A stretch of 64,000 nucleotides of DNA, from contig OZ240215.1 of assembly GCA_965197585.1 (NCBI GenBank), forward strand, positions 352,001 through 416,000, written 5' to 3'. Both the position numbers and the translations under genes were made by a program. Shown piece by piece: positions 19,286-59,900 of this stretch (position 1 is the stretch's first letter; each line of letters opens with the position of its first letter). The notes beneath the pieces are model-generated. The model was not told the DNA's origin, did not search any database, and worked only from the letters and a program-made list of their open reading frames with translations. The DNA is from Dehalococcoidia bacterium. Its GTDB lineage: Bacteria > Chloroflexota > Dehalococcoidia > Plut-88900.

Positions 19286-21541
19286 TTGAAAACCGTATTT
19301 GAAAAACTCAGCCGGATGATTCTCAGGCCCGGGAAAACGGGGGCCACTGCGGCCCCGAAGAAGAATGCCGCCCCGCCCAAGCCGCCCGTCCCCTTGCCAT
19401 CGTTCTACATGCTGTCCCACCTGGAGGAGGATGGTCCCGTGAGGCTCGACGGGGTCAAGCTGGGCATCTGCGAGGTGATGGGCCTGGAACTGGACGAGCC
19501 CCGGCTCGGCTCCTTCGCGGGGGCCCTGAACGCCCTGGACTTCCCGGTGCAGCTTCTAGTAAGGCAGCACCCGCCGGTGCTGGACCGGCTGAGGGATGCC
19601 CTAAAGGAAGCCCAGCCTGAAGACCTGCCGCCGAAGACCGAACAAGCCGCAAGTTCCCTCAGGGGCCTGCTCAGGGAACTCGAGACCCGGGAGGGGGTGC
19701 TGGACCGGCGGTTCTACGTTGTATGCAAACACGATAGGGCCGACGACTTGGCATCCCTACTCTCGCGGGTCGGCCTCTTCGTCCAGCCTCTCAGTGGCCG
19801 GACCCTCAGGATGTTCATCCTCGCATGCGCACTTGGCGGCTCTCCCAGGGACATGGACGAGACCGAGCAGGTGAGTGTGGAGATCAATCGCCGGGAGCTT
19901 CGAATCGGCCCCGGGCTCACCCGCTCCCTCCACCTGGGCCGCTGGCCCCGCACCCTTGTTCCCGGGTTCCTGCAGGCCCTCATGAACTCGGGCATCCCCA
20001 TGGACTTGTCCGTCCACCTTGCCCCAATCGCAGCCGACCAGGCGGCCCGCACACTGGAGTGGCAGAAGGTGCGGTTCGAGTCGGCCCGATCCATGTCCTT
20101 CCGCAAGGGCCGCAGCCTCTCCCCGGAGGCGGAGATAGCCCTGGAGGACGTCACCCGCCTCAGGGACGACGTTCAGCGGGGCCGGGAGCGTCTCTTCCAC
20201 TCTTCCCTTTCCCTGACTCTTCATGCAGACGATCACAAGAGCTTGAAGGAGATGACCCAGAGGACCAGGGCCCACTTTGCCGCCACGTTGGGCAAGCTGG
20301 ACGTCCTCCCCTTCCGCCAGAGGGAGGGGCTCCTGTCGACCCTGCCCCTAAACCTCAACTCCGTTGCGCTCTGGAGGACCCTGGACACCTCCTCCCTGGC
20401 CCGGCTGTTTCCCTTCTCTCCCCCCGACATGGACACCCGCAGCGGCACCCTCTATGGCCTGGACCTCAGGGCCCGGGCGCCCATCGTCTACGACCCCTGG
20501 GACGGCACCCACCTCAACGCCAACACCGCTGTCCTGGCCCGCTCGGGCAGCGGAAAGTCCTTCGCCACCAAGCTGGGCGTGTTGCGGGGTATATGCCGCG
20601 GAATAACGGCCTACGTCATCGACCCCGAGGGAGAGTATGCCGACATGGCCAGGGCCGCGGGGGGCAGGGTGCTGTCGCCGGGAGTACCGGGCCAGGGCAT
20701 GAACCCCTTCGTCATGGACCGGAGGGACTCGGAGGAGTTGCTCCAGCGCATCGGCAGCCTGAGGAGGCTGATAGAGGTGATGGTGGGGGAGAAGCTCGGT
20801 GCTGAGCGGCGCGCGGACCTGGACCACGCCCTGGCCGGCTACTACGCCGAACCCCGGGAGCGCACCGGGTTCCGGGACTTCTACGGCTACCTGCAGAGCG
20901 GGGAGAACGACGACTCGGAACTCGATTCGGGGCAGGCCCTGGCCAGGCTGCTGAGGCCCTTCGCCACGGGTAGCCTCCGCCACCTCCTGTCAGATGAGGG
21001 GGACGACCTGCTCCACAACGAGGCTCTCGTTACCGTGTTCGACCTGAGGCTCCTTGAGCCCGAGCTCCGGCCCGCCGCCGCCATGGTCTGCACCGAGACG
21101 GTGTGGGCCTCCGCCGCCCGGGACCCCAAGCCGAGGCTGCTGGTTGTGGACGAGGTGTGGTCGATCATGCAGCACCCCGAGGGGGCTGCGTTCATGGTCT
21201 CTATGGCCAAGAGGGCCCGGAAGCACCGGCTGGGACTCCAGTTCATAACCCAGGACGTCCAGGACCTGCTCAGCGAGGACACCTCCCGCACCATCACCGG
21301 CCACTCGGGAAGGGCCCTGCTGCAGAACGCCGCCTTCAAGCTGCTGCTCCAGCAGGACGCCGCGGCCATATCCACGGTGGGGGAGGCCTTCGACCTGCCC
21401 CAGGACCTTCAGAAGTGGCTTCTCTCCTGCCCCAGGGGCGACGGGCTGCTCCTGGCCAGGGGAAACCGGTTCCCGGTGCGCATCGAGGCCACGCCGGAGG
21501 AGGCGGAGATCATCGAGTGGAGGCCGGGAGCCCACGCCTAG
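19286..21541 (+). CDS. virB4: VirB4-like conjugative ATPase
   Basis: NANTAVLARSGSGKS, VIDPEGEY, LLVVDEVW, KRARKH, ITQD. Confidence 0.92.
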   Translation: MKTVFEKLSRMILRPGKTGATAAPKKNAAPPKPPVPLPSFYMLSHLEEDGPVRLDGVKLGICEVMGLELDEPRLGSFAGALNALDFPVQLLVRQHPPVLDRLRDALKEAQPEDLPPKTEQAASSLRGLLRELETREGVLDRRFYVVCKHDRADDLASLLSRVGLFVQPLSGRTLRMFILACALGGSPRDMDETEQVSVEINRRELRIGPGLTRSLHLGRWPRTLVPGFLQALMNSGIPMDLSVHLAPIAADQAARTLEWQKVRFESARSMSFRKGRSLSPEAEIALEDVTRLRDDVQRGRERLFHSSLSLTLHADDHKSLKEMTQRTRAHFAATLGKLDVLPFRQREGLLSTLPLNLNSVALWRTLDTSSLARLFPFSPPDMDTRSGTLYGLDLRARAPIVYDPWDGTHLNANTAVLARSGSGKSFATKLGVLRGICRGITAYVIDPEGEYADMARAAGGRVLSPGVPGQGMNPFVMDRRDSEELLQRIGSLRRLIEVMVGEKLGAERRADLDHALAGYYAEPRERTGFRDFYGYLQSGENDDSELDSGQALARLLRPFATGSLRHLLSDEGDDLLHNEALVTVFDLRLLEPELRPAAAMVCTETVWASAARDPKPRLLVVDEVWSIMQHPEGAAFMVSMAKRARKHRLGLQFITQDVQDLLSEDTSRTITGHSGRALLQNAAFKLLLQQDAAAISTVGEAFDLPQDLQKWLLSCPRGDGLLLARGNRFPVRIEATPEEAEIIEWRPGAHA

Positions 21542-21619: not shown

Positions 21620-24235
21620 GTGATGAGATTGAACCCGTTGAAAATACTGTCAGGCAGGTCCCATTCAAGGACCCCGGTGCTGCTGGCGGTGACGCCGCCC
21701 CGAACGGGGGAGCGAACCCTGCTGGGTGTGGAGAACCTGCTCTCCTCCATCGCCGTCCCCGAGCCGTTCTCACTGGAGCTGGCCGGAGACGCCTACGGCG
21801 TGACCCTGATGGCCCGCTGCCTGGACGGCCAGGTGGTCAGGGCTCAAGTAGCCGCCCACTACCCCCAGGCCACGATACGCGAGGTGCCTCCCGACGAGGA
21901 CCCCCTGCGACTGAGGGAGGGTGAGCAGGCCTGGGGCATGACACTGAGGTCATCGGGCCCCGAGTACGTGCCGCTCAGGGTGTTCCGGGACGACGACCTG
22001 CTCGACCCCGGCTCCGACCCCCTCATCGCCCTCCTGGGCGCCCTGTCCAACCTGGACGGCGACGACCGGATCGTGGCCAGGTTGATGCTGCGCTCCCTGG
22101 GCCCCGAGTGGTCCCGGCACCACATGGAGATGGCCCACGGCAGGCTGGCCCCTGAGCCCAGGGCTGCTTCCCATGCTCAGCAGGGCGGGCCTACGCAGAC
22201 CAACGGCAAGGCCATGGCCGCCCTGGGCATCGGCGCTCTTGCCGCCTTCCAGGGCTACACATGGGTGCAGGCCGGGGAGACGTGGAAGACCGTGCTCCTG
22301 GGCTTGGGAATCGTCCTAGCCCTGGCCGCGGGCGGCTGGGCCTGGCACCGTTGGAAGGCTTCCTGGTCCCGCGTCCACGACCCCCTGCTCATCAGGGAGA
22401 AAGTGTCCCGAATCGCATTCGACGCCGAGGTGCAGCTCGTCGCCGTCATGTCGGAGGCGGACCCGGAGGAGGCGAAGGGACGGGCGAGGAAGCTCCTGGA
22501 GCCCGTCGCCGCCGCCTACCGGCACTACGACAACCCCGCCGGAGCCCGCCTCAGGGCCGGCAAGGTCAGACCCGTACTTCCCGACCCGTCGACGATGCAC
22601 CCTTCCGGCCCCGGCCTGTTCGGCAGCCGCAGCGTCATCGGGGTCCGGGAGGCCGCAGCCCTGTGGCATCCCCCGGGGCCCCGAGACGACACCCCCCTGG
22701 TGGAGCGCTCCGGCGCCAGCGTCCTCATGCCCTCGGCCAGGGGAGTCACCGGAGGCGCCCTGGTGGGGGACACCACGGCGGGCAGGCCCAGGGAGATCCG
22801 CTTCCCGGGTGACCTGCTCCGCCGCCACCACCTCTACGTCGCCCGGACCAGAATGGGCAAGTCCACCCTCATGCAGCACATCGTCGCCCACAAGATGAGG
22901 GAGAAGGCCGGGGGAAGGGATGGCGACGCCATAGTCGTCGTAGACCCCCACGCCGACCTGGTGGCCGGCCTGCTCAACCACGTCCCCGGAGAGGTGGCGG
23001 ACAGGGTGCGGCTCATAGACCTGGCCGACCCCAGGGGAGCCCCCGGCATCAACCTGCTGGACACCCGTATCTTCGCCGACCGGGACCGCACCGCCGACTC
23101 GGTGGTCAGGGTTGCGCGGGGCCTCTGGGAGCAGTGGGGCCCCCGTATGCAGTCCATCTTGGAGCACACCGTCAAGACCCTCCACGAGGCCAACGGGCAC
23201 CCGGACACCGTGGAAGAGGAGCAGTTCACCATCCTGGACGGGCTGCGGCTCCTGTCCAACGAGCCGTTCCGCAACGCCGTCCTCGCCCGGGTCTCCGACC
23301 CCTACGTGCTGGAGTGGTGGGCCAGGGACTTCGGCAACTGGCACGCCCAGTACAAGGCCGAGGCCCTCGCCCCTGTCCAGACCCGGCTCTCCTACTACGC
23401 CTCCTCCAAGAGGGCACGGGCCATCCTCGGCCAGTCCCGATCTACCCTGGACATCCGGCGCACCATCCTCGACGGGGGCATCCTGCTGGTATCCACCGCC
23501 CAGGGGAGCGTCGGCAGGGACGTGGCCGCCCTGGTGGGCGCATCGATGCTGAACCTGGTGGACGCCGTAATCAGGGAGCAGGGAAGCCTTACTCCTGAGA
23601 GACGGCGTGGCGCCCTCGTGGTGGTGGACGAGATGCAGTCCATGCCCGGCGTGGACTACGAGTCGATGCTGTCGGAGCTGGGCAAGTTCGGGGCTTCCTT
23701 CATCCTGGCCACCCAGAGCCTGGCAAAGCTCGCAGACCTGTCCCCCACCATGCGGGACACCGTCCTGGCCAACGTCGGCTGCCTCGCCGTCTTCCAGGTG
23801 GCCGGCAACGACGCCCGCCAGCTGGTGTGGGAGCTTGGCCGGGACCGTGTGAGCGAGGAGGACATCGTCTCCCTGCCCGTCCACCACTGCTACGTCAGGG
23901 CCACCGTGGGCAAGGAGCGGATGCCCGCGTTCTCCATGATGGTGCGCAAGCCGGAGCCGGGAGACCCCGGTGGAGCCGCCCGCATCCGCTCCGATGCATC
24001 CTCCTACGTCATGACGGCGGAGGAGATCGCCTCGCTGCAGGCCGAGGGCCGGGCGCGGGTGGAGAAGTTCCAGGCCGCCGTCAAGAAGGGGGAGAAGGGG
24101 GCGGCCTCCCCGCCGGACCCTAAGGGGGACGCCCCGAAGGACGCCAACAGGGGCAATCGCCGCAGCAAGCACGACCAGGTGGACACCAAACCTGGGACCG
24201 CCGACAACGCTCCGGGTAAGGAGTCCGCGCAATGA
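21620..24235 (+). CDS. virD4: VirD4/TraD-like type IV coupling protein
   Basis: TM pair; HLYVARTRMGKST, VVDPHADL, VVDEMQ, LATQSL, VLANVG. Confidence 0.88.
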   Translation: MMRLNPLKILSGRSHSRTPVLLAVTPPRTGERTLLGVENLLSSIAVPEPFSLELAGDAYGVTLMARCLDGQVVRAQVAAHYPQATIREVPPDEDPLRLREGEQAWGMTLRSSGPEYVPLRVFRDDDLLDPGSDPLIALLGALSNLDGDDRIVARLMLRSLGPEWSRHHMEMAHGRLAPEPRAASHAQQGGPTQTNGKAMAALGIGALAAFQGYTWVQAGETWKTVLLGLGIVLALAAGGWAWHRWKASWSRVHDPLLIREKVSRIAFDAEVQLVAVMSEADPEEAKGRARKLLEPVAAAYRHYDNPAGARLRAGKVRPVLPDPSTMHPSGPGLFGSRSVIGVREAAALWHPPGPRDDTPLVERSGASVLMPSARGVTGGALVGDTTAGRPREIRFPGDLLRRHHLYVARTRMGKSTLMQHIVAHKMREKAGGRDGDAIVVVDPHADLVAGLLNHVPGEVADRVRLIDLADPRGAPGINLLDTRIFADRDRTADSVVRVARGLWEQWGPRMQSILEHTVKTLHEANGHPDTVEEEQFTILDGLRLLSNEPFRNAVLARVSDPYVLEWWARDFGNWHAQYKAEALAPVQTRLSYYASSKRARAILGQSRSTLDIRRTILDGGILLVSTAQGSVGRDVAALVGASMLNLVDAVIREQGSLTPERRRGALVVVDEMQSMPGVDYESMLSELGKFGASFILATQSLAKLADLSPTMRDTVLANVGCLAVFQVAGNDARQLVWELGRDRVSEEDIVSLPVHHCYVRATVGKERMPAFSMMVRKPEPGDPGGAARIRSDASSYVMTAEEIASLQAEGRARVEKFQAAVKKGEKGAASPPDPKGDAPKDANRGNRRSKHDQVDTKPGTADNAPGKESAQ

Positions 24236-25893
24236 CGCCCGCAGGGTGCACCGGAGAGCTGCTGCGCCGCCTGGCCGCCATGCCCTTCCTGGACCGGCTG
24301 GAGATGGTGGCCGTCTCCGGCTGGTCCAGGGGGGCCGTATACCCCGCCGTCGAGTCCCTGGAGCGCAACAGGCTGGTGGCCTCCGTACCCCACGCATCGG
24401 ACCTCGTTCCGCCAGCCCGAAGGTTCCACCTCACGGTTCCCGGCCTGTACCGGCTTGCGAGGGAGGAAGGCATGACCGTGGACGGGCTCCTTGCCGCCTA
24501 TCCCCTCTCCGCGCAGTGGCAGCGGCTGCTGATGGAGCGCCTGGACGCCGTGGCCGTCATCTACCGGCTCGTCTGTATGGTCTCCGACGTCGCCCACCCC
24601 ATACGCTTCCGCTGGTTCAGGGCCCTGCCCATGGACGCGGCGGTGGGACTTCCCGACGGGCGGGTGGTCTCCATAGTCAGGCAGGGCCCCACCTCCGACA
24701 GGACGGCCTTCGCCAAGCGCCTCTGGCGGCTGGGGAAGGGTCCCCGGCCTAGCGCCGTCCTCATCCTGGCGCCGGACGGGGTCCGTCTCAGGCATGCCCG
24801 CAGGCTGATGATGGGATCTCCCTCCCTTGCGTTCCTAGCCCCGGAATCCACCGCGGTCTCCGGCACTGCCGTATCCCGGGTGTGGCGCACCCCCTCGGGG
24901 TCCTCCCTCCTGGACCTGCGCACCGCCCTCTCGCTCACGCAGCGGCGGGGAGAATGGCCCCTGGAAGGGTCTCCGGCGCGGGCCCACCTCCCGGAGAACA
25001 TCGTACTGGATGCCCCGGGGGAATCGCTGCCTGACTGGACGCTGCCCGCAGTGCTCAAGTCCGCCGAGAAGCGGGCCCTGGACCTGCTTTCCGACTGGCC
25101 CTGGGTCTCGCCCACTCACATGGGGATACTGCTGGGGGTGAGGCGGTCCATGCTCTCCCGGGTCCTGGTACGGCTCTGCGGACTGGGACTGGTCACGGGT
25201 TCCGACGTTGTCGGGAGCAGTCTCCTGGCGGTCACGGACCGGGGCCTGGCGCTGCTGGCCCGCCGGGACCGTTCCGCCGTGGGTGCTGCCAGGCGGCGGT
25301 GGAGCCCGGCTCTCCAAGACCCGGACGGCCCCATCCAGTGGCGCAACGTCACCGGCAGGAGAAGCCGCCAGCTGCTGAGGAACCTGGAGCACACCTCGGC
25401 GGTCCACTGGTTCATGGCGGTGCTGTCCAGGCAGGCCCGCTCCAGGTCGAGGGAGGTGGTCCAGCTCGACCCCCCCAGGAGGGCATCGAGATACTTCCGT
25501 CACGGAGACAAGCTGCGCTCCATACACCCCGACGCCTTCGGCGTCCTGCGCCGGGACGGCAAGACCTCGCCGTTCTTCCTGGAGTGGGAGCGGCGAGCTG
25601 TACGCCCGGCCACCATGGCCGACCGCATCGCACCCTACCTGCGCTACTACTCCTCCCGCCGGCCCACCGACGACCATGGGGCGCGGCCCGCCGTGCTGGT
25701 GGTCTTCGAATCGGACCTGGCGGCCACTCACTTCCTGCGCATTGCATCTCAGGAGATGAATCGGGTGGGGGTGGACATCCCACTGTATGTCTCCCACAAG
25801 AGCCTGTTGGAGAGGGTGGGTCCCCTGGGGAAGGCCTGGAGAGGGGTGGACGGGACTGGGCCGGGCTACGCTTTTCAGATGAGTTCTACCTAG
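24232..25893 (+). CDS. Replication-relaxation (Replic_Relax-like) protein, putative relaxase, two tandem domains
   Basis: wHTH-like segment plus TDRG, LEHT, IHPDAFG...FFLEWER; ATGA-coupled to virD4. Confidence 0.78.
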   Translation: MTPAGCTGELLRRLAAMPFLDRLEMVAVSGWSRGAVYPAVESLERNRLVASVPHASDLVPPARRFHLTVPGLYRLAREEGMTVDGLLAAYPLSAQWQRLLMERLDAVAVIYRLVCMVSDVAHPIRFRWFRALPMDAAVGLPDGRVVSIVRQGPTSDRTAFAKRLWRLGKGPRPSAVLILAPDGVRLRHARRLMMGSPSLAFLAPESTAVSGTAVSRVWRTPSGSSLLDLRTALSLTQRRGEWPLEGSPARAHLPENIVLDAPGESLPDWTLPAVLKSAEKRALDLLSDWPWVSPTHMGILLGVRRSMLSRVLVRLCGLGLVTGSDVVGSSLLAVTDRGLALLARRDRSAVGAARRRWSPALQDPDGPIQWRNVTGRRSRQLLRNLEHTSAVHWFMAVLSRQARSRSREVVQLDPPRRASRYFRHGDKLRSIHPDAFGVLRRDGKTSPFFLEWERRAVRPATMADRIAPYLRYYSSRRPTDDHGARPAVLVVFESDLAATHFLRIASQEMNRVGVDIPLYVSHKSLLERVGPLGKAWRGVDGTGPGYAFQMSST

Positions 25894-26747: not shown

Positions 26748-27029
26748 TTAGCTTGAAAGGCACGCTGGCGTCATCTCCCCGACCACCGGCAACAGGTGGC
26801 GAAGGAGGCCCATTTCGGCGGCCAGGTTGAAAAGGCGGATAAGGTGGCCCGGGTCCGGCCGCGTTCCCTTCCGCCACCGCTTCAGCATTCGTATATCGAC
26901 GCGAAGTCGGCGTGCCAGTTCCCGCCAGGATAACCCTGCGGCTTCCTTGAAACCCTCCAGGCGTTGCGGGAAATCCGGCGGGAACCGCGATGGCTCTATC
27001 TGGTAGACAAATTGATGTTGCCGACCCAT
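26748..27029 (-). CDS. XRE-family HTH protein (paralog 3)
   Basis: PDFPQRLEGFKEAAGLSWRELARRLRVDIRMLKRWRKGTRP. Confidence 0.85.
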   Translation of the reverse strand: MGRQHQFVYQIEPSRFPPDFPQRLEGFKEAAGLSWRELARRLRVDIRMLKRWRKGTRPDPGHLIRLFNLAAEMGLLRHLLPVVGEMTPACLSS

Positions 27030-27031
27030 AG

Positions 27032-27280
27032 CTAACCAGCCCGGCGTAACTCCGGTGCGGCCTCGGGGAGCAGCGCCTCCAGGCCATCGGGAACTTCGGC
27101 TGCCAGCCCTATGAGCGCAAGCATGGCTCCGCCCGACGGCTCCGTCCCATTTCGCCAACGGCATACCCGCTTGTAGTCCACGCCGAGACGCCGGCACATG
27201 GCTTTCCATCCCAGGCCCGAGGCTTCCTTCAGGCGCACCAGCCTCTGCGTGAAGTCAACGGGTATGCGTTGATCGTTCAT
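27032..27280 (-). CDS. XRE-family HTH protein (paralog 2)
   Basis: VDFTQRLVRLKEASGLGWKAMCRRLGVDYKRVCRWRNGTEP; AAGGAG SD. Confidence 0.85.
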   Translation of the reverse strand: MNDQRIPVDFTQRLVRLKEASGLGWKAMCRRLGVDYKRVCRWRNGTEPSGGAMLALIGLAAEVPDGLEALLPEAAPELRRAG

Positions 27281-27311: not shown

Positions 27312-27611
27312 CTAACTCCTCTTCCTAAGTAGGACGACAACGTCCTCGTCCAACAGCTCTCCAAGGCCTTCAGGCACGCGTATCGCCAGCCGCACCAGGG
27401 AGAGCATCGCTCCGCCGTTGGGGCCCCCGCCCCTGCGCCAGCGCAGCAGCTGTCGGTCATCGACGCCCATCGCCACCGCCATTCCCTGCCATGTGAGTCC
27501 GGTCATCTCCTTCAGCGCCTTCAGCCGGTCGTCGAAGTCCTCGGGTATCAGGGCCACACCCGGTGGGATGAACAGTTGAGAACGAGAGGTTGACCGTCTG
27601 TTAATCATCAC
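27312..27611 (-). CDS. XRE-family HTH protein (paralog 1)
   Basis: EDFDDRLKALKEMTGLTWQGMAVAMGVDDRQLLRWRRGGGP. Confidence 0.85.
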   Translation of the reverse strand: MMINRRSTSRSQLFIPPGVALIPEDFDDRLKALKEMTGLTWQGMAVAMGVDDRQLLRWRRGGGPNGGAMLSLVRLAIRVPEGLGELLDEDVVVLLRKRS

Positions 27612-27834
27612 GCCTCACCACGACGAACAGGTCGTCGAACTCAGGGCTGCCCAGGGCTTCCTGCAGCAGGCCCCGCATCCGCGGAGACGGATTTCTCCTC
27701 CCGTTTATTAGCCTGGAGAGGTAGGCCGACGTGATGCCCAGTCTGCGGGCCATGTCGTTCTGGCTCATGTTCAGCCGGTCCAGCCGGTCCCAAACGGTCC
27801 TGGCGTTGACCTTCACCACGGGGCGCTTATCCAT
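27601..27834 (-). CDS. Cro-like XRE regulator
   Basis: MSQNDMARRLGITSAYLSRLINGRRNPS. Confidence 0.88.
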   Translation of the reverse strand: MDKRPVVKVNARTVWDRLDRLNMSQNDMARRLGITSAYLSRLINGRRNPSPRMRGLLQEALGSPEFDDLFVVVRRDD

Positions 27835-28042
27835 CGCTGCGGTCTTCCTTCCCTTGCAGGGCCCGCCTCTCATCGGATGCGGGGTCCCCGCTATCCGTAG
27901 GATGGAACTCATGCCTGTTGTGGGCGATGGATGCCAGGTGGCGGCGCACGATCATGCGGGCTAGGATCCGCAGCCCTCGCAGCCGCTTCTCCTCCTGCTC
28001 CTTGGTAAGTCGGACCTTCGTATTCACCCTCTCACCTCTCAT
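27827..28042 (-). CDS. Small basic protein (first gene of the leftward regulatory operon)
   Basis: Up to 71 aa, basic helix RLRGLRILARMIVRRHL; overlaps the cro-like start. Confidence 0.5.
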   Translation of the reverse strand: MRGERVNTKVRLTKEQEEKRLRGLRILARMIVRRHLASIAHNRHEFHPTDSGDPASDERRALQGKEDRSDG

Positions 28043-28127: not shown

Positions 28128-28216
28128 TAGTGTAACAGTGCTGTATGCTCGCATACAAGACTATTGCGGCCAAATTGCAAGCAGTTCTTGACAAGTGCTG
28201 CCTCTAGTGTAACAAT
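28128..28216. promoter_or_regulatory. Divergent promoter/operator region of the immunity switch
   Basis: TTGACA at 28188 and TGT-AACAAT at 28208-28216; direct repeat TAGTGTAACA at 28128 and 28205; palindrome TGTATGC-tc-GCATACA at 28142. Confidence 0.6.
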
Positions 28217-28284
28217 TAGTGACCTGTACATATCCAACACACGATGCGTACAGCTAAGCACTCCAGGTGCCAAGGGAGACTTCG

Positions 28285-28692
28285 ATGAACCACGAGACCG
28301 ACCGCCGGGACGAGGACATAGGACAGATGCTCAAAAGGCTGCGGGGCGAGACCAGCCTGCGGGGCGTACAGCGCCTCACCGGCATCTCCAACGCCTATCT
28401 CTCCCAGATAGAGAAGGGAGACCGCCACCCGGGGCCCAAGCTCCTGCGGAGACTTGCCGTCCTCTACGGTGTGAACATCCAGGAGCTGCTCAGGAAGGCC
28501 GGCTACCTGGACAAGGACGAAAAGGAGGCCGAGGTCGACGAGGCCACGGAGGTGGAGAGGGCCTACCAGTACGTCCTCTCCGACCCCGTATTCCGCGTGG
28601 GCACCCGGCCCAGGGGTCCCCTGTCCATGGAGTCCAAGCGCTTCATAGTCGAGCTCTACGAGCGATACACGGGAAAGAGGCTTCTTCAATGA
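28285..28692 (+). CDS. ImmR/cI-like XRE repressor
   Basis: SLRGVQRLTGISNAYLSQIEKGDRHPG...ELLRKAGYL; divergent from the cro-like operon. Confidence 0.9.
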   Translation: MNHETDRRDEDIGQMLKRLRGETSLRGVQRLTGISNAYLSQIEKGDRHPGPKLLRRLAVLYGVNIQELLRKAGYLDKDEKEAEVDEATEVERAYQYVLSDPVFRVGTRPRGPLSMESKRFIVELYERYTGKRLLQ

Positions 28693-29648
28693 ACAGTGCC
28701 ATGCTTGACGATTTCTGCCACGGCCTGACGGGTGGCTGGACTGCCCAGGACAGGCTGCAGCCGCCAGAGGTCGCCCGGAGGTTCGTGGGCTTCTTCGGCT
28801 TCTCCCCCTTTCCCCGCATGGGAGAGATGGTCCGGGTGCTGGAGACAGCGGGTATCGAGACGGTGGCGGACCCCAACTTGGAGAAGGGCCTGAGGGGCAT
28901 GCACCTGGGCACGAGCCACGGGACTTACATCATCCGCTATGACCCCTCCGAGCCGGAGGGGACCCGGGAACACACTGTGTTCCACGAGACATACGAGATC
29001 ATTCGGGAGAGGCTCGCCGACCTACATCCACGCTTGGAGCGGCCCTGGGGCAAGGCGATGTGCCGGCTGGCCGACCGGTTCGCCGCCGCTGCATTGATTC
29101 AGCCCAGGTTCTTCGCCCTCTTCGCCGAGACCACCGGCCTGGACGTGATGGAACTGCAGCGCACCTACGGCCGAGCCTACTCCTCCCTGACCATCCGGCT
29201 GGCCGAGGTGATGCGTCACCAGCCCCTGCTGGCGGTCCTGTACGAGCGCAGCGGGGCGAGAGACCCGCAGCGGTGGGCCGAGCGCCCTTCCCCGGAGGAG
29301 TTCACGGCGACCGTGGTGGCAAGGACGCCGGGGTTCAGGTTGAGGACCGTCAAAAGGCCCTTGTCGGCCCTGCGGGGCCTGCTGCCCCGCAGGGGCTATC
29401 CACCAGCCCAATACTCGGTGGCGGAGCGGGTCATTCTCACGGGAAGGCCCGTATACGTGGAGCGGGTCACGGGCTACGACCTATGGAAAACCGACGACAT
29501 CACCGTGGCCGCAAGGCTGGTCCACTGGCACGGGCGCCTGGCCAAGATAGCTATCGTGGCCGTGCCCTTCCGAGACAGGAAGGTCCTCGCTCCCCAGTTC
29601 ACCCGCGTCTCCTTTGAGCACATTTCCAATGCCCACCAAGTGATGTAG
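28689..29648 (+). CDS. ImmA/IrrE-family metallopeptidase-like anti-repressor
   Basis: ATGA-coupled to the repressor; REHTVFHETYE and ADRFAAAALI; long C-terminal domain. Confidence 0.8.
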   Translation: MNSAMLDDFCHGLTGGWTAQDRLQPPEVARRFVGFFGFSPFPRMGEMVRVLETAGIETVADPNLEKGLRGMHLGTSHGTYIIRYDPSEPEGTREHTVFHETYEIIRERLADLHPRLERPWGKAMCRLADRFAAAALIQPRFFALFAETTGLDVMELQRTYGRAYSSLTIRLAEVMRHQPLLAVLYERSGARDPQRWAERPSPEEFTATVVARTPGFRLRTVKRPLSALRGLLPRRGYPPAQYSVAERVILTGRPVYVERVTGYDLWKTDDITVAARLVHWHGRLAKIAIVAVPFRDRKVLAPQFTRVSFEHISNAHQVM

Positions 29649-29771: not shown

Positions 29772-29972
29772 ATGCCCACTTTGCCCAGGAACACCAAGAC
29801 CATCACCTTCTCCCTTCTCCCGGAGATGGCGGAGGAGGTCCAGCAGGTGATGAGGGAGGAGGGCCGCACCATGAGCGAACTCATCCGCCAGGCCCTCAGG
29901 AACTACATGGAGGAGCGGCAGTGGATCAGGGACATGCGCTACGAGAAGATGAAGGCGCAAGAAGAAGAATAG
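29772..29972 (+). CDS. Ribbon-helix-helix (CopG-like) protein
   Basis: TITFSLLPEMAEEVQQVMREEGRTMSELIRQALRNYM. Confidence 0.88.
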   Translation: MPTLPRNTKTITFSLLPEMAEEVQQVMREEGRTMSELIRQALRNYMEERQWIRDMRYEKMKAQEEE

Positions 29973-30000
29973 ACGAAGATGCAGAGTGGAGATTGAACCG

Positions 30001-31635
30001 ATGAAAGTACACGATGAACTGATACCGGCAGCCCTGTACGCCAGGGTCTCCAGCGAGCGGCAGGATGTAGACCTATCTGTGTCTGCTCAGTTGCGAGCCC
30101 TTCGAGACTACGCCCAAAAGAACGGATACCTAGTAGCCAGGGAGTACGTCGACGAGGCTGAGAGTGGGCGATTTGCAAACAGACCTCATTTCCGCCTGAT
30201 GCTGGATGAAGCTAGCAAGTCTGACGCCCCGTTTCGAGAAATCCTAGTATGGAAATTCTCCCGCTTCACCAGAAAACGGGAGCACGCAGTGGCTTTTAAG
30301 TCCATGCTCAGGAGACGGGGCATAAGGGTAGTTTCCATTACCGAGCACGCCGACGACACCCCCACCGGCAAGCTCATGGAGGCAATTATCGAGAGCGTAG
30401 ACGAGTTCTACTCTGAGAACTTGGCCCAGGAGGTCACCCGGGGCATGCGGGAGGCCGCCTCCCGAGGTTTTTGGGTGGCTCCAAACATACCCTACGGCTA
30501 CCGCAGAGCATATATACAAGACGGAGGGAAAAAGCGACCAAGGCTTGAGCCCGTCCCACCCGCCGATGGCGTCATACGGCGTATATTCGAAATGGCACTT
30601 AAGGGTAACAGCACCCTGGACATCACAAGGACCTTGAACGAGGAAGGGATCTCCAGTCCAAATGGCAAAAAGTGGCTAAAAACGGGCGTCCATAGAATAC
30701 TCACGAACGAGACTTATACTGGCACTCTGATATGGGGTGTCAACTCCAAGGACAAAGCGCCGCCAGTCCGCGTTGAGGGTGCGTTCCCTGCCATAGTCTC
30801 CGAGGCGGGGTTCCGAAGTGTAGGAGAGATTCTCCGAGCTAGATCGCCTTCGAAGGTTCATCCCAGGCGTGCGGCAAGTCGCTATCTGCTAAGCGGACTT
30901 ACCAAGTGTGACGACTGTAATCGCGCTCTCATCGGCCAAGAGGCCAAGAGTGGAGAATATGCCTATTACGTATGCCACTCTCTGATTAAGCAAGGCAAGG
31001 GAACCTGTAGCACTCCCAGACTTAACGCCAAGAGTTTCGAGAAGCTCATCGTTGGGCAAATTCGTGACCACATTCTCACCGAGAGCAACATCCGGGATTT
31101 AGTGAGGCTAGTAGATGAGGAAATGGACGGTGTTGCCCGGGAACAGCGTCAGAAGCTGCAGACAATCGAGCAGGAGATTGTCGAAGTGCGCCGTAGGCTG
31201 GACAGAATATGGCACGCGCTTGAAACCACTGATTTGGACATCTCTGATGCGTCGTCGCGCATCAAAGGGCACCGGGAGCGAGAGGAACAATTGGAAGTTG
31301 CTGCAAAAGAGGCGAGGGCTGCTTTGTTGGAGCGAAGGACTTTTCTGGACAGGGTGGATACGATCACCGAGTTCGCCAAGGACATGAGCGACTTCCTGAA
31401 AACCAGTAGCCTAACCGAGTGCAAGGCGTTCGTAAGGACCTTCGTCAAGGAGATTAAGGTGAATGCAAGACAAGCGACTGTCGCCTATACGATACCTACT
31501 CCAGACGATAGTCGTCCTGACGAAGAAATCGTGACAGCAATAGGGCTTGGTGATCCAGTTCTGTCTACAGTCCTCTATGGTAGCGCATACGGGATTCGAA
31601 CCCGTGGTCTCCGCCTTGAGAGGGCGGTGTCCTAG
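30001..31635 (+). CDS. Large serine recombinase (integrase)
   Basis: YARVSS catalytic Ser motif, SRFTR, PYGY, YTG, LLSGLTKCDDC...YYVC...C Zn ribbon, coiled coil. Confidence 0.95.
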   Translation: MKVHDELIPAALYARVSSERQDVDLSVSAQLRALRDYAQKNGYLVAREYVDEAESGRFANRPHFRLMLDEASKSDAPFREILVWKFSRFTRKREHAVAFKSMLRRRGIRVVSITEHADDTPTGKLMEAIIESVDEFYSENLAQEVTRGMREAASRGFWVAPNIPYGYRRAYIQDGGKKRPRLEPVPPADGVIRRIFEMALKGNSTLDITRTLNEEGISSPNGKKWLKTGVHRILTNETYTGTLIWGVNSKDKAPPVRVEGAFPAIVSEAGFRSVGEILRARSPSKVHPRRAASRYLLSGLTKCDDCNRALIGQEAKSGEYAYYVCHSLIKQGKGTCSTPRLNAKSFEKLIVGQIRDHILTESNIRDLVRLVDEEMDGVAREQRQKLQTIEQEIVEVRRRLDRIWHALETTDLDISDASSRIKGHREREEQLEVAAKEARAALLERRTFLDRVDTITEFAKDMSDFLKTSSLTECKAFVRTFVKEIKVNARQATVAYTIPTPDDSRPDEEIVTAIGLGDPVLSTVLYGSAYGIRTRGLRLERAVS

Positions 31636-31654
31636 GCCGCTAGACGAATGCGCC
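31578..31654 (-). tRNA. tRNA-Glu(CTC)
   Basis: GGCGCAT...CCGCC-CTCTCAA-GGCGG...GGTTCGAATCC...ATGCGCTACCA cloverleaf, 77 nt, encoded CCA. Confidence 0.97.
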
Positions 31655-32170: not shown

Positions 32171-32320
32171 CTAACCCGCAGACTGCACGATCCCTATGAC
32201 GTTCCCATCGGGATCGGAGAATTGGGCCAGGGTGACCATCCCGGGAATCTCCATAATTGGCATCGTTGTCTTACCGCCTAGGCTCTTAGCTTTGTCCAGC
32301 GTCGCCTGCAGGTCCTCCAC
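32171..32320 (-). pseudogene. VOC/glyoxalase-family C-terminal fragment
   Basis: VEDLQATLDKAKSLGGKTTMPIMEIPGMVTLAQFSDPDGNVIGI; upstream sequence is REP-like repeat rather than the N-terminal half. Confidence 0.75.
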
Positions 32321-32330
32321 CCCCCTCCAT

Positions 32331-33600
32331 CCGTCTTTCCTGCGGAGGCAGGAATCCATCCCTCCTGAAGGCGCACCCCCCGCCGAGCCGGGACTCCCCG
32401 CCCCATCCTCTCCCCCCATCCGTCATTCCGGCCGCCGAGAGCCGGAATACATCCCTGGGGAGGGGCCGCTCACCCTGAGCAAAGTCGAAGGGTCGAGCGG
32501 GGGGAGGCCCAGTTCTGCCAATAAATCGCGCTTACCCTGCACCTCCACCCCAGCCCCCTGTCATCCCGAGGCTCCGCGAGGAATCTAGGACTTGCCCTCT
32601 CACGCCCTTCCTAGCCTTCCTTCCCCTCCCCCCTTGATAACGACATATCAGCCATGTTGCCCTGCAACATGGCTGATATGTCAATAAAACAGGGCGGGTG
32701 GGCGGGACTCAATGTATCCCTGAGGGTGGTAAGGGGTGCCCCCTCCCAAATGTGACACGAACCCCTTGACCCGAGAGAAACATATGTACTATATTCATCC
32801 CCGACCGGCCAGTCACCATCCCAACCCCAAAGGAGGACCCAACACCCGGGGAACACCACCGGACCCCCGAGGACTCAACGTCCAAGCCCATCCCAAAGGG
32901 CAGCCCACGCGCTGCCCCACGGCTCAAGCGAAAGCCGCCATCTCCTCATCCATAGGTTCCGGCTCACCCTTCCCCACCACCCAGGCGATGGAAAGACGCC
33001 CTGGCCTTCACGCTCCCACCCCACTCCCTCCATTCCCCCTCCGTCATTCCCGAGAAGTCGGGAATCCAGGGGGCACAGGGAGATTGCATCAAGGGTGACC
33101 GGAGCATACACTCCGCGGACCGCCTAACCCCCATGGAGAACCGTCTCGAATGTCGGGCCGCATTGCTGGAACTTAGCGCTACGGCGCGGGGGTACCCGGA
33201 GGATATTCGCTCCTGTCCTTTTCCGGCGAACTTGGACACTATTAGTTAGGCTGTGGGGCTTCGCACAGCTGGATCCCTGGCCCCCACATGCCCCCCACGG
33301 GCATACAGCCCCCATAAGGAGCCTCTGCCGGACGTCTGGCCCGAGAATTGTCCGTGTATACCATCTAGCATCAGGGCATAATGGCTGCAAGTCCACGAAC
33401 AAGCAACTCTGCCAAACGGGCGTCTTCCATCGCCACCCCTCCCCACCAAAACCGAAACCCCCGAGACCCAACTGAATAACCCCTCCCCCCGACCCGGAAT
33501 CCATCCCCTCCCGTAGGGGCGACCGGCCGGTCGCCTGGGGTGGGGCGCTCCTCTCACCCCGGATTGACCTGCCACCGTAGGGGCGGTTCGAGAACCACCC
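32331..33600. repeat. Cluster of REP-like palindromes of several families
   Basis: CCGTC(A/T)TTCC...GGAAT hairpins at 32331, 32420 and 33041; CACCCTGAGC..GTCGAAGGG at 32471; CCGTAGGGGCG hairpins at 33511 and 33575. Confidence 0.75.
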
Positions 33601-53926: not shown

Positions 53927-56900
53927 CTAGTGGGCCCTCACCGTCACTATCACGCTATCTGTCGCCGAGCCACCTCCGCCGTCCGTGACCGTTAAAGTTA
54001 ATATGACAGTCTGAGGTACAACCCCAGGCGCGGGAGCTGTCCATACGGTGTCCTCCGAACTTTCGTCGGCAAAGTGCCCGATATCGGGGCTGGCAGTCCA
54101 GAAGTAGGAAAGCGTGTCGTTCTCCGGGTCGCTGGACGTGCCGTTCAGCGAGACCGCATTGCAGCCGTTCACGGTAGCCAAATCGGGCGAAACGGAAACC
54201 TTGGGCGCGCTGTTACCCGTTACCTGAGTAATGATGATCGTGTAGGTCCGTGTAGTGGCCCCATCCTCGGCGGTGACTGTCACTGCAATGCTTGTAATGC
54301 CAGGATGTACTGCTATCTGATGGCCTGCTCTGAGCACATCGGAGTCGACTGTGGGACCGAATGTCACAGTAGCGTTCGTTTCGGCGGTTGTGGCGGAGAC
54401 CGTTGCCTGGGTCACCGTACTGCCGACCGTTAAGGTATATAAGGTGGTCTCAGCCCTGAACTCGCTAATGTCCACAGGATTTACAGCGAGGGATCTCAGT
54501 GCGGCATCTGTCGAAGGCACCCGGGCGTTCACCACTTCAGACCAACCCCCGATTCCCACCGCGTTTCCAGCGGACACTCGCACGTCGTAGCTGGTTCCTG
54601 CAACAAGGACAACGGAGTCGAGAGTAGTGATCGTATATGTCGTGCCAGTCACGGTCCATTGGTCAATCACGGTGACGCATTCATCACTTCCCTCGATGTC
54701 TCCAGACCCACTTTCGTTCTCCCAGCCCTCATTCTCAGGACAACCCGGTGCGAGTGTGGACCTCCATTGCACCAGATATTCAGTAATTGGGTCACCTCCA
54801 TCGCTTAGAGGCGGGGACCACCTCACCGCCAAACCGTTGACGGCACGGCGATAAGTAGCCATCGGCGAGGTTGGAGCGGAGGGTATGCCTGACGCCACCT
54901 CCCCCGACACTCCGCTCGCGGTCTTCTCCGGTCCCCTCCGGTCGGTATACGTAGCCGTAGCCCGTAGATAGTTACCTATATCGGCAACCACCGGTGCATA
55001 ACTGGCTGTTGTGGTGTTGACGATGGTAACCCAGGGGCCATCGGAATTGTCAGAGTGCTCCCATAGCCAGGACTCGACAGCGCTGGCGGGAATGAGCCCC
55101 AAGTTGTCGAGCGGAATGTAGTTGTCCGGGTCCATCACCCTAGCGGTCATCACCTCTCCCACCTGCGGGGATAATGGTGAGAGCGACACGTTGCCGTCCT
55201 CCTCAACATCTACCACTCTGATGGTAACTCCTATAGCGTCGTCTACACTTAAGTCAGTGTTTCCGTGCGCATCCTTGCCATCCGACACCGATACAGTCAC
55301 CGCATATAAAACCTTGATTTCATAGTCCAGCGTTGTGCCTCCTGCCACCCCTATCTGCCCTGTGCCGTCGATCACGAAAGACGAGGCATCCATCCCACCC
55401 AGTACATAGGTAAGGCTATCGCTCTCTTCGTCTACAGCCTCTACCGGCTCGCCCACGTCGCCTCCTGCCCCACTTCCTTCATCCACGTAGCGCTCACCCG
55501 TTTCGGACACGGGAAACGAAGGCGTGCTGTTCACCGCCGCCACGATGATTTGTACTACGCTCGTATCACTCACCTCCAACTCATCGGTGACGGTCAAGGT
55601 CAAGGTGACGACCAGATCCTGATTCGTGGCTGGAGGAGCAGTCCATGTGGTGTCCTTCGCATCGGCGTCATCGAAGGTTCCGTCGCCTGACCAGGCATAG
55701 GTCAGCAGGCCTTGCTCAGGGTCAGACCCTCCGCCGGAAAGTGAGATCATCCCATCACCCTGGATGGTGTCGTTCGATGCGTAAGCTTCAGCTAATGGGC
55801 CCTGATTTGCCTCCACCGTCACGATAGCTGTAGCTGTCCCCTGCTCTCGCGGGGTGCCATTGTCAGTCATGGTGAGGATCAAGGTCACGGTCTGGACCTC
55901 GGCAAGGGGGGCGGGAGCCGTCCACGTAGTGTCCTCCATCATGGTGTCACCAAATTCACCGATGTTCGCTGGAGTCGTGGTCCAGATGTAAGTGAGCGTA
56001 TCCTCGGTGGAGTCGCTAGACGCGCCGTCGAGAGTGACAACTCCACGCCCGAGCACGCTCGCCGGGGAAGGTAAAGTGGTAACCGTGACGGTTGGCTTGC
56101 TGTTATCGTCATCGTCAATCGTTACGGAGACAATCCTGGTATCCGATTCGACACTAACGATGCTCTGGCTGGGCAAGCCCATCATCACGTCAAAGGTCTC
56201 TGCTTCCTCGTCTACATTATCCTGGACTATCGCAATGCCCACGTTTTTGGCTGCTCGATAGAAAGTGTCGCCATTTATCTGAATTGCAGAGAAGTCCCGT
56301 CCAGCAAAGACTAGGCTGTCGCTTAACTCCGCGTAGTCTTCGCCAGCCTTTGCAGATCCGTCCGAGGTCGTGATGGGAATCGAGAATTGGCCGTGAGGCA
56401 TTTGGTCGTATTCCGTGGCTACGGTAATGGTTACAGTTGCCTGGCCTATACCCTCGTTAACAGGATTAGGTGATACAGATAGCACAGCCTCAGACTCCGG
56501 CAAATCATCGTCCTCCACAACTATAGTGGCAGTTGCCCCGTCAGTATCAATGATGTACCAGTCCTCGGGCTTGATCCTCATCTCGATCGTGGAATGTTTC
56601 TCCCAAACGATGTCGTCGGCGGTCTCCACGCTGAACACTGCTGTAATCTGATTCGGCTCGATCTCCCGGAGCGGGGAAGTGTTTTCGATGGCGTCCGAGA
56701 GTATGTCCCCGTGTCCCTGGCCATAAATCACATCCAGTTCATCCATCCCCACCCGCACTTCCAGTACGTCCCCAGCCACCTCGGATCTTTCTATCTCGAA
56801 GCGCAGCAAGTTGCCCTCTGTGGCGGGATTGTCAGTCAACGTTGTTATACTGACCGAGGGTTTGGCCCTTGTTATAGCCATGCTGTAATCCTGCGCCGAG

Positions 56901-59900
56901 TCTCCTCTGACAACCCGAACTTTCAATGTGGTTTTACCAATCCCCAGGTAGACTTGGTGGCCGTCCGCCATATCGTCAAGATCGTCGTAAGGGTTATTGT
57001 ATGAGTCCAGGAAAGAGACTTCGGCGTTGGACTCGGATGTGGCGGTAATGGTTATCAGATGAGTCCCATACCCAACGTCGGGAACGTTATAGGAGAATTG
57101 GGTGGAAGAGAATGTAGTCGTGAGAGTGCCAGTGTTGACGGCCAGGGCAGTGAGGGCAGGAGGCCTCACAGTCACGTCATCGTCAGTAATCGTGATTGAT
57201 ATATTGTTGAAGCTGGAATCTAAAGTGACTAGATTGTCGGAGGGTCTACCCATGCCTACACTAAAGGACTCATCGTCTTCGTCAACGCTGTCCTGTAAGA
57301 TGGAAATGTCGGCGGTCTTGAAGGCTCGGTATCGAGTAATGCCATCTAGGTAGACCACGGCAAAGTCCGACTCGGGAAAAATTAACGTGGTATCCAGCGC
57401 CGTGTAGTCTTCACCTGACTCAGCTGTGCTGTCGGAAGTGGTTAAGGGAATCGTGGCCTTGCCGTGGGGTCTTTTGTCACCTTTTGTCGTCACTGTAATG
57501 GCGGCTATGGTCTCACCCATGTGCTCACCGATGGGATTGGGAGAAACGATAAGCACGGCCTCCGACTCCACGAAATCATCATCCTTCACGACAACCGAGG
57601 CAGTGCCACTTTCTAAATCAATGGCATAAAGGTCGTCCGCTACGACCTGCACCTCAATCTGGGAGTGGTTCTCCCAGGCGTTATCCCCCATTGTTTCCAC
57701 TTCCACAGTGGTCGTGGTATCGTTACTTGCAATTTCATAGGTCAGAGACACCCCTTCTTCGGAGTCGGGAAAGAGATCACCTGGGTCGGAGTTAGAGTCA
57801 ACACCCAGTTCGCTGGTGGCGACAGTGACGGTTAAGATGTCGCCTGCGGCCATTGACCTCTTCAATTCAAACCTGAGGGTGTCGCCTTCGGTACCGGGTC
57901 CGGTGGTCAAGGAACTAATGCTGACTGTGGGCTTTGCCCTTGTTATCACAAGGGTATAGTCCTGAGTGACTCCTCCCTTGGCTACCCTCACCTTGACGGT
58001 AGTATTCCCTATCTTGAGGGATACCTGCTGACCTTCGGTCATATCGTCGAGATCGACGATGACGCTATTGGAAGAGTCCAGAAAAGAGACTTCGGCACTG
58101 GACTCGGGTGTGGCGGTAATGGTCATAAGGTGAGTCCCATACCCAACATCGGGGATGTTGTAGGAGAGATGGCCGGAGGAGAACATTGGCGTTAGCGTAC
58201 CAGCGTTGATGGTCAAGCCAGTGAGGACTGGAGGCGTTACAGTCACGTCATCGTCAGTAATCGTGACGGATATATTGGCGGAGCCAGGGTCTAAAATGAC
58301 TAAATTGTCGGAGGGAGTTCCCATGGCAACGTCAAAGGACTCACTGTCTTCGTCAACGCTGTCCTGTGTGATGGAGATGTCAGTGGTTTTGAAGGCTCGG
58401 TATTGAGTATTACCACCTAGGTCGATCTGGGTGAAGTCCGACTCGGCGAAAGTTAGAGTCGTGTCCAGTTCCGTATAATCTTCCCCCGAGGTGGCCGTGT
58501 CATCAGAGGTGGTTAGGGGAATAGTGACCGTGCCGTGGGGTATTTGGTCACCTTTTGTAGTAGTGGTCACGGTGACTGTGGTTTTGCCCGCTCCTTCGCT
58601 CACTGGGTTCAGAGAAACACTAAGCACGGCCTCTGACTCCACGAATTCATCATCCTTCACGACAACCGAGGCAGTGCCACTTTCTGAGTCGATAGTGTAA
58701 GAGTCACCCGCCACGACCTCAACCTCGATCTTGGAGTGGTTCTCCCAGGTGTTATCCCCTATTGTTTCCACTTCTACAGTGACCGTGGTCTCGTTACTTG
58801 CGATTTCATAGGACAGATACGCCCCTTCTTCGGAGTTGGGGAAGAGATCGCCTGGGTCGGAGTCTGCGTCAACACCTAGCTCGCCGATGGCGACACTAAC
58901 GGCTAAGGCGTCGCCTGCAGCTATAGATCTCTTCAACTCGAATTTGAGGGTGTCGCCTTCGGTGCCTGGTCCGGTGGTCAAGGAACTAATGCTGACTGTG
59001 GGCTTTGCCCTTGCAATGGTGAGGGTGTAGTCCTGAGTAACTCCTCCCTTGGCAACTCTCACCTTGACGGTGGTACTGCCTATCTTGAGGGATACCTGCT
59101 GGCCTTCGGTCATATCGTCGAGATCGACGAGGACGCTATTGGAAGAGTCCAGAAAAGAGACTTCGGCACCTGACTCGGGTGCGGCGGTAATGGTTATAAG
59201 ATGAGTCCCATACCCAACGTCGGGGACGTTATAGGAGAGATGGCTGGAGGAGAACATTGGAGTTAGCGTGCCAGGGTTGATGGTCAAGCCAGTGAGGACT
59301 GGAAGCGTTACAGTCACGTCATCGTCAGTAATCGTGACGGATATATTGGCGGAGCCGGAGTCTAAAGTGACTAGCGTATCGGAGGGAGTGCCCATATCTA
59401 CATTAAAGGACTCACTGTCTTCGTCAACACTGTCCTGTGTGATGGAGATGTCAGCGGTCTTGATGGCTCTGTATCGAGTATTGCCTTCCAGGTCGATTTG
59501 GGTGAAGTCCGACTCGGCGAAAGTTAGAGTCGTGTCCAGTTCCGTATAATCTTCCCCCGATGTGGCTGTGCCGTTGGAAGTGGATAGGGGAATCGTGATC
59601 TTGCCGTGGGGTTTTTGGTCTCCTTTCGTCGTCACTGTGATGGTGGCTATGGTCTTACCCATGTCCTCGCCGATGGGATTAGGGGAGACGCTAAGCATGG
59701 CCTCCGACTCCACGAATTCATCATCCTTCACGACGATCGAGGCCCGACTGCTTTCCGTGTCAATGATGTACAAGTCGTCGCTCACTATCTTCATCTCGAT
59801 TTTTGAGTGGTTCTCCCATACCTCGTCCCCAGCAGTCTTAACCTTCACAATAGCAGTTGAGTCACCTGCCTCGATGTAGTACAGGGGCGACTTATCTTCC

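Follow-up and report, generated by a model that had tools for sequence, protein, structure and literature searches.

We analysed a 64,000-nucleotide stretch from the genome of a Dehalococcoidia bacterium (the window; G000:C1:352001-416000, where G000 is the genome holding it), in which the integrase gene of an inserted element runs into a tRNA gene. The open reading frame (ORF) of this large serine recombinase occupies 29986-31635 on the plus strand, and from the ATG at 30001 the coding sequence (30001-31635) specifies 544 amino acids in the integrated state. Matches to PF00239 (Resolvase, residues 10-156, 111 bits), PF07508 (Recombinase, residues 191-280, 72.8 bits) and PF13408 (Zn_ribbon_recom, residues 296-355, 46.1 bits), all above the curated Pfam cut-offs, complete the domain set of the large serine recombinases. 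An intact tRNA-Glu(CTC) lies on the minus strand at 31578-31654 (ARAGORN; the Rfam tRNA match covers 31581-31654), and is identical at 77/77 nucleotides to the same gene in three relatives free of the insert. A first-pass annotation had proposed that the integrase ORF has no stop before the CCA of this tRNA and reads through 58 nucleotides of it, and the ARAGORN and Rfam calls together with the ORF translation bear this out: the overlap is 31578-31635, the 3' part of the tRNA read antisense. The host-encoded end of the ORF (31584-31635, plus strand) includes the TAG stop at 31633-31635, in the region of the D-arm, and the C-terminus of the integrated form reads ...VLSTVLYGSAYGIRTRGLRLERAVS.

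By our own arithmetic, 19 stop-free codons would arise with a chance of about 0.4, which is not rare; the case that the overlap goes beyond chance comes from the register kept throughout the family and not from this one open stretch. Relatives number at least 608, and the family was counted in the 80 best of them, every one of which comes from a metagenome-assembled genome of Dehalococcoidia or Chloroflexota. In 44 of these 80 loci the ORF likewise ends inside an antisense tRNA. The tRNAs concerned span 16 isoacceptors, the length of the overlap varies between 12 and 654 nucleotides, and in 41 of the 44 loci the tRNA 3' end lies exactly 75 nucleotides past a conserved Y-x-x-P-x-P anchor in the integrase. 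The layout is therefore a trait of the family and not an accident of one locus. The region across the junction (30800-31605) is free of indels in contigs from three public runs (X1, X3 and X5) belonging to three studies; the runs were examined as contigs, and X1 is possibly the source sample. An earlier stop is likewise missing from two integrase paralogs in the same genome, and a sequencing error is an unlikely cause of the missing stop codon.

The first-pass annotation had also suggested that convergent transcription of the tRNA might silence the integrase gene. A promoter and terminator scan around the junction returned counts no higher than in shuffled sequence, and antisense silencing was therefore given no weight. 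Within that scan, whose counts were not above chance, a promoter-like site (TTGACT, 18 nucleotides, TAGTAT) lies at 31703-31674 on the minus strand, directly upstream of the tRNA, and there is no terminator-like site on the minus strand between the end of the tRNA and 30709.

The ends of the insert were located by comparison with relatives. The tRNA ends with base 31578, and it is precisely here that all eight relatives from the same genus become homologous to the window; in five of the eight the DNA behind the tRNA maps to G000 297824-298986. These two observations place an insertion of about 84 kb between the mapped flank and the tRNA. The flank, as judged by its homology to relative G003, extends up to a TGGTAG at G000 299364-299369, which is followed by 10 nucleotides and then by the 15-mer ACTGTAGACAGAACT (G000 299380-299394). 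This 15-mer is the perfect reverse complement (15/15) of AGTTCTGTCTACAGT, the outer motif of the P arm, found on the plus strand of the window at 31557-31571 within the integrase codons V-L-S-T-V. Six nucleotides beyond the latter motif stands the second TGGTAG (31578-31583), the last six nucleotides of the tRNA (CTACCA on the tRNA strand), and this hexamer is the sole sequence common to both junctions. The insert spans 84,214 bp between the two cores; its left end, at G000 299364, is 52.6 kb to the left of window position 1, and junction mapping and G+C (GC) content assign window positions 1-31583 to it. An attachment (att) site inside the integrase coding sequence, as had been claimed, is thus found, with the core lying within the ORF. 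The further expectation that the other att site would lie left of the window as a copy of the tRNA 3' end was right as to the place, 84,214 bp away, but only 6 bp of the tRNA are copied there. Repeat finding in the window, a genome-wide BLAST of 141 nucleotides and a comparison of 10-12-mers between the junctions gave no long direct repeat of the 3' part of the tRNA. A long tRNA-copy att site was consequently rejected, the two junctions sharing only the 6-bp core and the far one having been located through the flanks of relatives.

Joining the two arms across the core rebuilds attP, the att site of the circular element. It is 52 bp long (15 + 22 + 15 nucleotides), is self-complementary at 40/52 positions and has its centre on the AG of the core. 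Inverted half-sites around a centre are the anatomy expected of the attP of a serine integrase, and a length of about 50 bp, a central dinucleotide and little identity to attB, all features of large-serine-recombinase attP sites, are found as well (the paralogous site described below is self-complementary at 38/52). From the centre of symmetry we infer that the crossover dinucleotide is the AG at 31582-31583, which would place the crossover 17 codons before the stop, at codon 528 of 544.

A second element in the same genome has the same geometry. Two further integrase paralogs are present, one of which, 70% identical, adjoins tRNA-Glu(TTC) (G000 2665842-2667594, or L002 1-1753), with its far junction at G000 2584368 and an insert of 82,995 bp. 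Here the ORF crosses the entire tRNA and continues 75 residues past the crossover point. The core, TGGTAC, is the end of that tRNA and is found at both junctions, 82,995 bp apart, and the spacing of 15 + 6 + 6 + 10 + 15 nucleotides is the same in both elements. The central dinucleotide changes from AG in the CTC element to AC in the TTC element, in step with the two tRNAs. In relative G002 (L027) the TTC site is uninterrupted and the same left flank is joined directly to the tRNA, so that attB, attL and attR are all seen. Read from the crossover codon, the far end of the TTC element encodes TPKRTVLRTFQWVVSI, with its stop at the same place as in the CTC element.

The consequence of this arrangement is that the integrase would have two different ends. 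In the chromosome, residues 528-544 (17 amino acids) are tRNA antisense and read SAYGIRTRGLRLERAVS. In the circle the codons of the far junction stand behind the core, and translation of this natural DNA gives 16 different residues, RPSGTVDRTFQWVVPL, and then a stop, in agreement with the earlier proposal that the integrated and excised forms carry different tails. Outcomes that would speak against that proposal, namely a crossover outside the coding sequence, the same tail from attP, or an earlier stop lost through error, were looked at and none of them occurred.

Far-end sites were then compared in two sets. The first comprised 13 sites collected by the 15-nucleotide motif alone, nine in G000 and four in related loci. 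An in-frame stop stands at the eighth codon past the motif in 13/13, and TAG, TAA and TGA are all used. Variation was seen at 7/7 third codon positions compared with 3/7 first and 3/7 second positions, and the differing codon pairs comprised 142 synonymous and 176 non-synonymous ones. The second set was drawn with a pattern consisting of the motif and the two bases preceding it, which matched 51 of 401 genomes of the class, and a reversed control pattern was almost absent from the 401. Outside G000 this gave 31 sites in 29 loci, of which 17 were kept by their upstream context alone (TGGT at the expected distance); the 14 set aside were ten integrase-side arms read backwards and four sites with the stop and without the TGGT flank. 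The stop stands at the eighth codon in 13 of the 17 sites, all from other genomes, and the summed pairwise differences at codon positions 1/2/3 are 2.45/1.37/4.05. In the far-end sites the final residue of the circle tail is always L, I or V. These results suggest that the circle-only tail is under selection as protein, and since its codons join the ORF only in the circle or in a hybrid junction, the selection would act on the protein encoded by the circle. This apparent selection is the sole hint toward a possible functional difference between the two forms, such as the directionality or stability switch put forward in the first-pass annotation.

The other loci among the 80 relatives fall into several classes. 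Four are in the attP form, with a far-end flank of the same kind as here and tails of the type ...RTELRTFRWEV-x-I/V (for example ...RTELRTFRWEVLI). Two have another type of far end, eight have other ends, and in two the anchor motif was not found. In the remaining 20 loci a second serine recombinase gene is convergent with the first, and the two overlap tail to tail across one att-like site, as seen in detail in L051. The second recombinase of these loci (L051 3970-5784 and 19 others) is more distant, and each C-terminus is encoded on the half-site of the other. Such a pair may be the shared attP of elements with two integrases, or the hybrid junction of tandem elements.

Taken together, these observations make it probable that the gene is the integrase of a conjugative-type, composite 84,214-bp island at the 3' end of tRNA-Glu(CTC), with an attP that spans the end of the integrase gene and a tail that is swapped by integration. 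One half-site (15-nucleotide motif, 6 nucleotides, TGGT) lies within the last integrase codons, and its inverted copy at the opposite end of the integrated element. Strand exchange with the tRNA end would take place at the 2-bp centre AG (tRNA acceptor positions 71-72) inside the 6-bp shared core, and the tRNA would stay intact because the element supplies its last 4-6 nucleotides. With no stop of its own before the crossover, the integrase takes its stop from whatever DNA is joined there. In the circle this would be the far end of the element, which provides 16 conserved codons and then a stop whose place is fixed; in the chromosome tRNA antisense is joined and gives an arbitrary tail (17 amino acids here, 75 in the paralog, and 12-654 nucleotides of overlap across relatives). 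The circle-encoded protein would then be the selected native form, needed for integration, and the chromosomal form a tail-swapped by-product that would still be required to support excision.

Several points weigh against this interpretation. Four of the 17 far-end sites from other genomes are without the stop at the expected codon (two have it shifted by one or two codons, one has an apparent frameshift and one reads through), and because the compared far-end sites are mutually related, the counts overstate the independent support. Part of the far-end conservation could stem from a function of the flank as DNA. For a natural attP-form relative, an AlphaFold2 model (mean pLDDT, the predicted local distance difference test score, 67.9) has its last confident strands at residues 476-490, and confidence is low from residue 512. 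In the tail it is about 35, so that no structural role for the tail is visible; the alignment behind the model is so shallow there, with only three sequences carrying that tail, that the model neither backs nor excludes a fold. As to the ends of the insert, relatives differ in the native flank behind the tRNA, and the comparison of the far junction with an empty site rests for the 84-kb insert on one moderately similar relative; only the paralog gives a clean one. A third integrase and extra att-like sites make the insert composite, and the far half-site could for that reason belong to an older or nested element. Finally, the contigs of the public runs contained the integrated junction (X1, X3 and X5), and among the matches listed there was no circle or empty-site junction, a result that is uninformative on excision itself.

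How much the exchange of tails matters is a separate question. Perhaps it is a neutral by-product of a compact att-integrase module, in which the C-terminal 40 or so residues are dispensable and disordered and the conservation of the far half-site reflects a DNA function (an extended site for the recombinase or a cofactor) or shared ancestry. We regard this as quite plausible, if somewhat short of probable. The low model confidence from residue 512, the free variation of the integrated tails and the mutual relatedness of the far-end sites all favour it. However, a purely DNA-level role fits poorly with third codon positions being the most variable, with all three stop codons being used at one codon position, and with synonymous changes being as frequent as they are. 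The conserved stretch also extends about 41 bp from the centre of the site, and a typical half-site is shorter than this. In favour of dispensability, McMurdie et al. 2011 judged the overlapped part of dsiB, a serine recombinase gene of Dehalococcoides islands, unlikely to encode a functional region, according to the part of their article used here (PMC3146451).

Another explanation, which we consider possible and rather less likely, is that the exchange of tails acts as a switch. The circle-only peptide (...T-F-R/Q-W-E/V-V-x-L/I/V) would alter the activity, directionality or lifetime of the integrase, so that the free element would integrate preferentially while the protein made in the chromosome would be dampened or under different regulation, with a possible addition from convergent transcription of the tRNA. 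The fixed stop and the coding-like substitution pattern of the circle-only tail point in this direction, as does the contrast with integrated tails that are arbitrary in sequence and length. The final residue, always aliphatic, is a further point, and an aliphatic C-terminal residue recalls C-terminal degradation tags. On the other hand, the tail lies beyond the last predicted folded element, the chromosomal form must remain able to excise, and no promoter or terminator signal above chance bears on antisense transcription. There is a precedent in a phage repressor whose tag is removed by integration (part of PMC4557955), and the same idea was voiced by McMurdie et al. 2011, who in the part of the article drawn on here considered that full function of dsiB may be confined to the circularised element (PMC3146451).

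It is improbable that the crossover lies elsewhere, whether because it falls further into the tRNA and the element holds more of the tRNA sequence, or because the far junction paired here belongs to another, nested element; either case would give the circle a different tail. The composite insert lends some substance to this idea, with att-like sites inside it at G000 319346, 324109, 329608 and 329655 and with the third integrase near the far junction. However, there is no copy of the tRNA 3' end longer than the 6-bp core between the junctions, and the internal sites at G000 324109 and 329655 have a central GG (plus strand) instead of AG. The far junction, moreover, abuts the flank that relatives have next to the tRNA, its motif matches in inverted orientation at 15/15 positions, and the geometry of the paralog is identical, with an empty site as control. 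An artefact, whether a lost stop codon or a mis-assembly joining the integrase gene to the tRNA, is hardly credible given the same indel-free junction in contigs from three runs of three studies and the read-through in two paralogs and 44 of 80 relatives.

Returning to the island with an exchanged integrase tail, a broader model can be offered, although only tentatively and as an unlikely one in its full extent. The family would recognise the 3' ends of many tRNA genes and use its own gene as a sensor of its state. The circle-only peptide (...T-F-R-W-E-V-x-L/I/V) would tune activity or lifetime in such a way that the enzyme is competent for integration only when the element is free, and convergent pairs would be re-tailed by a single event.

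The genes of the island lie to the left of the integrase gene in the window. Directly upstream is a gene for a ribbon-helix-helix protein of the CopG type (29772-29972, plus strand; PF01402, 37.9 bits), which may be a regulator or an excision cofactor and is a candidate for the directionality factor that large serine recombinases, the catalysts of attP x attB recombination, require for excision. It is preceded by an ORF with a weak IrrE/M78 peptidase-like match (28164-29648, plus strand; 19.9 bits, under the Pfam cut-off of 22) and by two helix-turn-helix regulator genes identified with Pfam on the minus strand (26748-27209 and 27601-27912). Further to the left, all on the plus strand, lie a candidate relaxase gene for a Replication-relaxation family protein (24232-25893; PF13814, 31.4 bits against a cut-off of 25.3), a gene for a type IV coupling protein-like ATPase of the TrwB/VirD4 type (21620-24235; PF10412, 25.8 bits) and one for a VirB4/TraC-like conjugation ATPase (19286-21541; PF19044, 49.9 bits). 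A conjugation ATPase, a coupling protein, a relaxase and an integrase within att boundaries are the components of an integrative and conjugative element, although the relaxase and coupling-protein matches are weak; transfer is predicted from gene content. The GC content is 0.65-0.70 in the conjugation core and 0.54-0.62 to the right of the tRNA, where Pfam identifies metabolic genes (an amine oxidase and amidohydrolases). Also to the right, a repeat family at 32313-33000 recurs at well over 100 places in the genome with about 70-95% identity and coincides in part with two ORFs (32196-32588 and 32736-33098) that have no Pfam match, and a giant ORF of 2264 amino acids (53927-60721, minus strand) contains three tandem units of 1071 nucleotides with 60-85% identity.

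The third integrase paralog, 65% identical, is inverted and lies 190 bp inside the far junction (G000 299552-301156, minus strand; L021 3552-5156). At its tail the gene enters a stretch that resembles the T-arm and acceptor of a tRNA (a 3' half), and inverted homologs of conjugation genes follow. Neither ARAGORN nor Rfam (E up to 1) called a tRNA or tmRNA in this stretch. Pairing of the inverted integrase with the internal att-like sites was attempted and dropped, as no consistent model resulted. Orphan half-sites of the far-end type, with a conserved short ORF end, are present at G000 154996, 324109, 329655, 428753, 460525, 460591 and 499715, and in the site at 324109 two arms of the far-end type are joined. 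At G000 3370634 and 426503 there are short pieces left over from integrase 3' ends; one of them adjoins tRNA-Ala(CGC) in the same register, and no full integrase gene was detected there.

If the circle-only tail is functional, it would provide mobile elements with a simple protein-coded means of sensing whether they are free or inserted, here in serine integrases, for which the control of directionality has practical relevance to genome engineering. If the tail has no function, the family is still a source of numerous natural attP/attB pairs, whose sites are short, defined and directed at conserved tRNA ends. The layout explains the odd integrase C-termini of variable length that appear in automatic annotation, and in this genome tRNA-Glu genes are insertion points for 83-84 kb of conjugative DNA.

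Large serine integrases of the phage type (phiC31, Bxb1, SPbeta) generally insert their elements within protein-coding genes or between genes, and their own coding sequences are not known to contain the att site. The present integrase shares with them the domain set, an attP of about 50 bp, inverted half-sites and little identity between attP and attB, but its target is a tRNA end and its attP lies across the stop region of its own gene. A protein search of a plasmid collection matched 646 records, all below 60% identity and those listed at or below about 30%, so that no close attP-form relative on a free replicon was found there. In phage BPs, which has a tyrosine integrase, the repressor gene reportedly carries the att site in its 3' end, and the tail removed is said to be a demonstrated degradation tag. 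The likeness to the integration-dependent immunity of mycobacteriophage BPs and its relatives, as given in part of the cited account (PMC4557955), is that the integrated and free forms encode proteins with different C-termini because the att site falls within the 3' end of the gene; there a repressor is re-tailed, and here the integrase itself. The archaeal tyrosine integrases of the SSV type ('suicidal') also have their att site within the integrase ORF and a tRNA as target, as described in the portion of that article considered (PMC7253208). Integration alters the integrase gene itself in both cases, but in the SSV type a tyrosine recombinase gene is split in two, whereas here only the last 16-17 codons of a serine recombinase gene, past all recognised domains, are exchanged. 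Our literature search, which left supplements aside, found no published family of serine integrases that target tRNA 3' ends and show this overlap; such a family may be contained in the large computational catalogues that exist for these enzymes.

The closest parallel is DsiB, from the ssrA-specific islands of Dehalococcoides, which we compare by description from the part of McMurdie et al. 2011 available to us (PMC3146451). There the 3' end of the serine recombinase gene invariably extends over the att site; the stop of dsiB lies only outside the island, even within ssrA, and is sometimes reached after antisense reading, and the C-terminal ends of DsiB diverge in length and sequence. Both systems have a serine recombinase of about 540 amino acids at the edge of an island in the same bacterial class, and in both the gene runs across the att site and lacks a stop within the island. 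They differ in the target, which is the tmRNA gene ssrA for DsiB and tRNA-Glu(CTC) here, with tRNA genes of 16 isoacceptors in relatives, and in the core, which is a 20-bp direct repeat with insertion in the T-loop there and 6 bp at acceptor positions 71-76 here. The gene content differs as well. The DsiB islands are mobilizable and encode DsiA (a small serine recombinase) and RecF-like, ParB-like and Mom-like proteins; here VirB4-, VirD4- and relaxase-like genes are found, with none of the DsiA/RecF/ParB/Mom module next to the integrase gene on the window side scanned with Pfam. Evidence suggestive of a selected circle-only tail is presented here, and no such report for DsiB is contained in the part of that paper used (PMC3146451). 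The overlap phenomenon, as described there, is already known from this class of bacteria, and the family studied here is a variant of it at tRNA ends.

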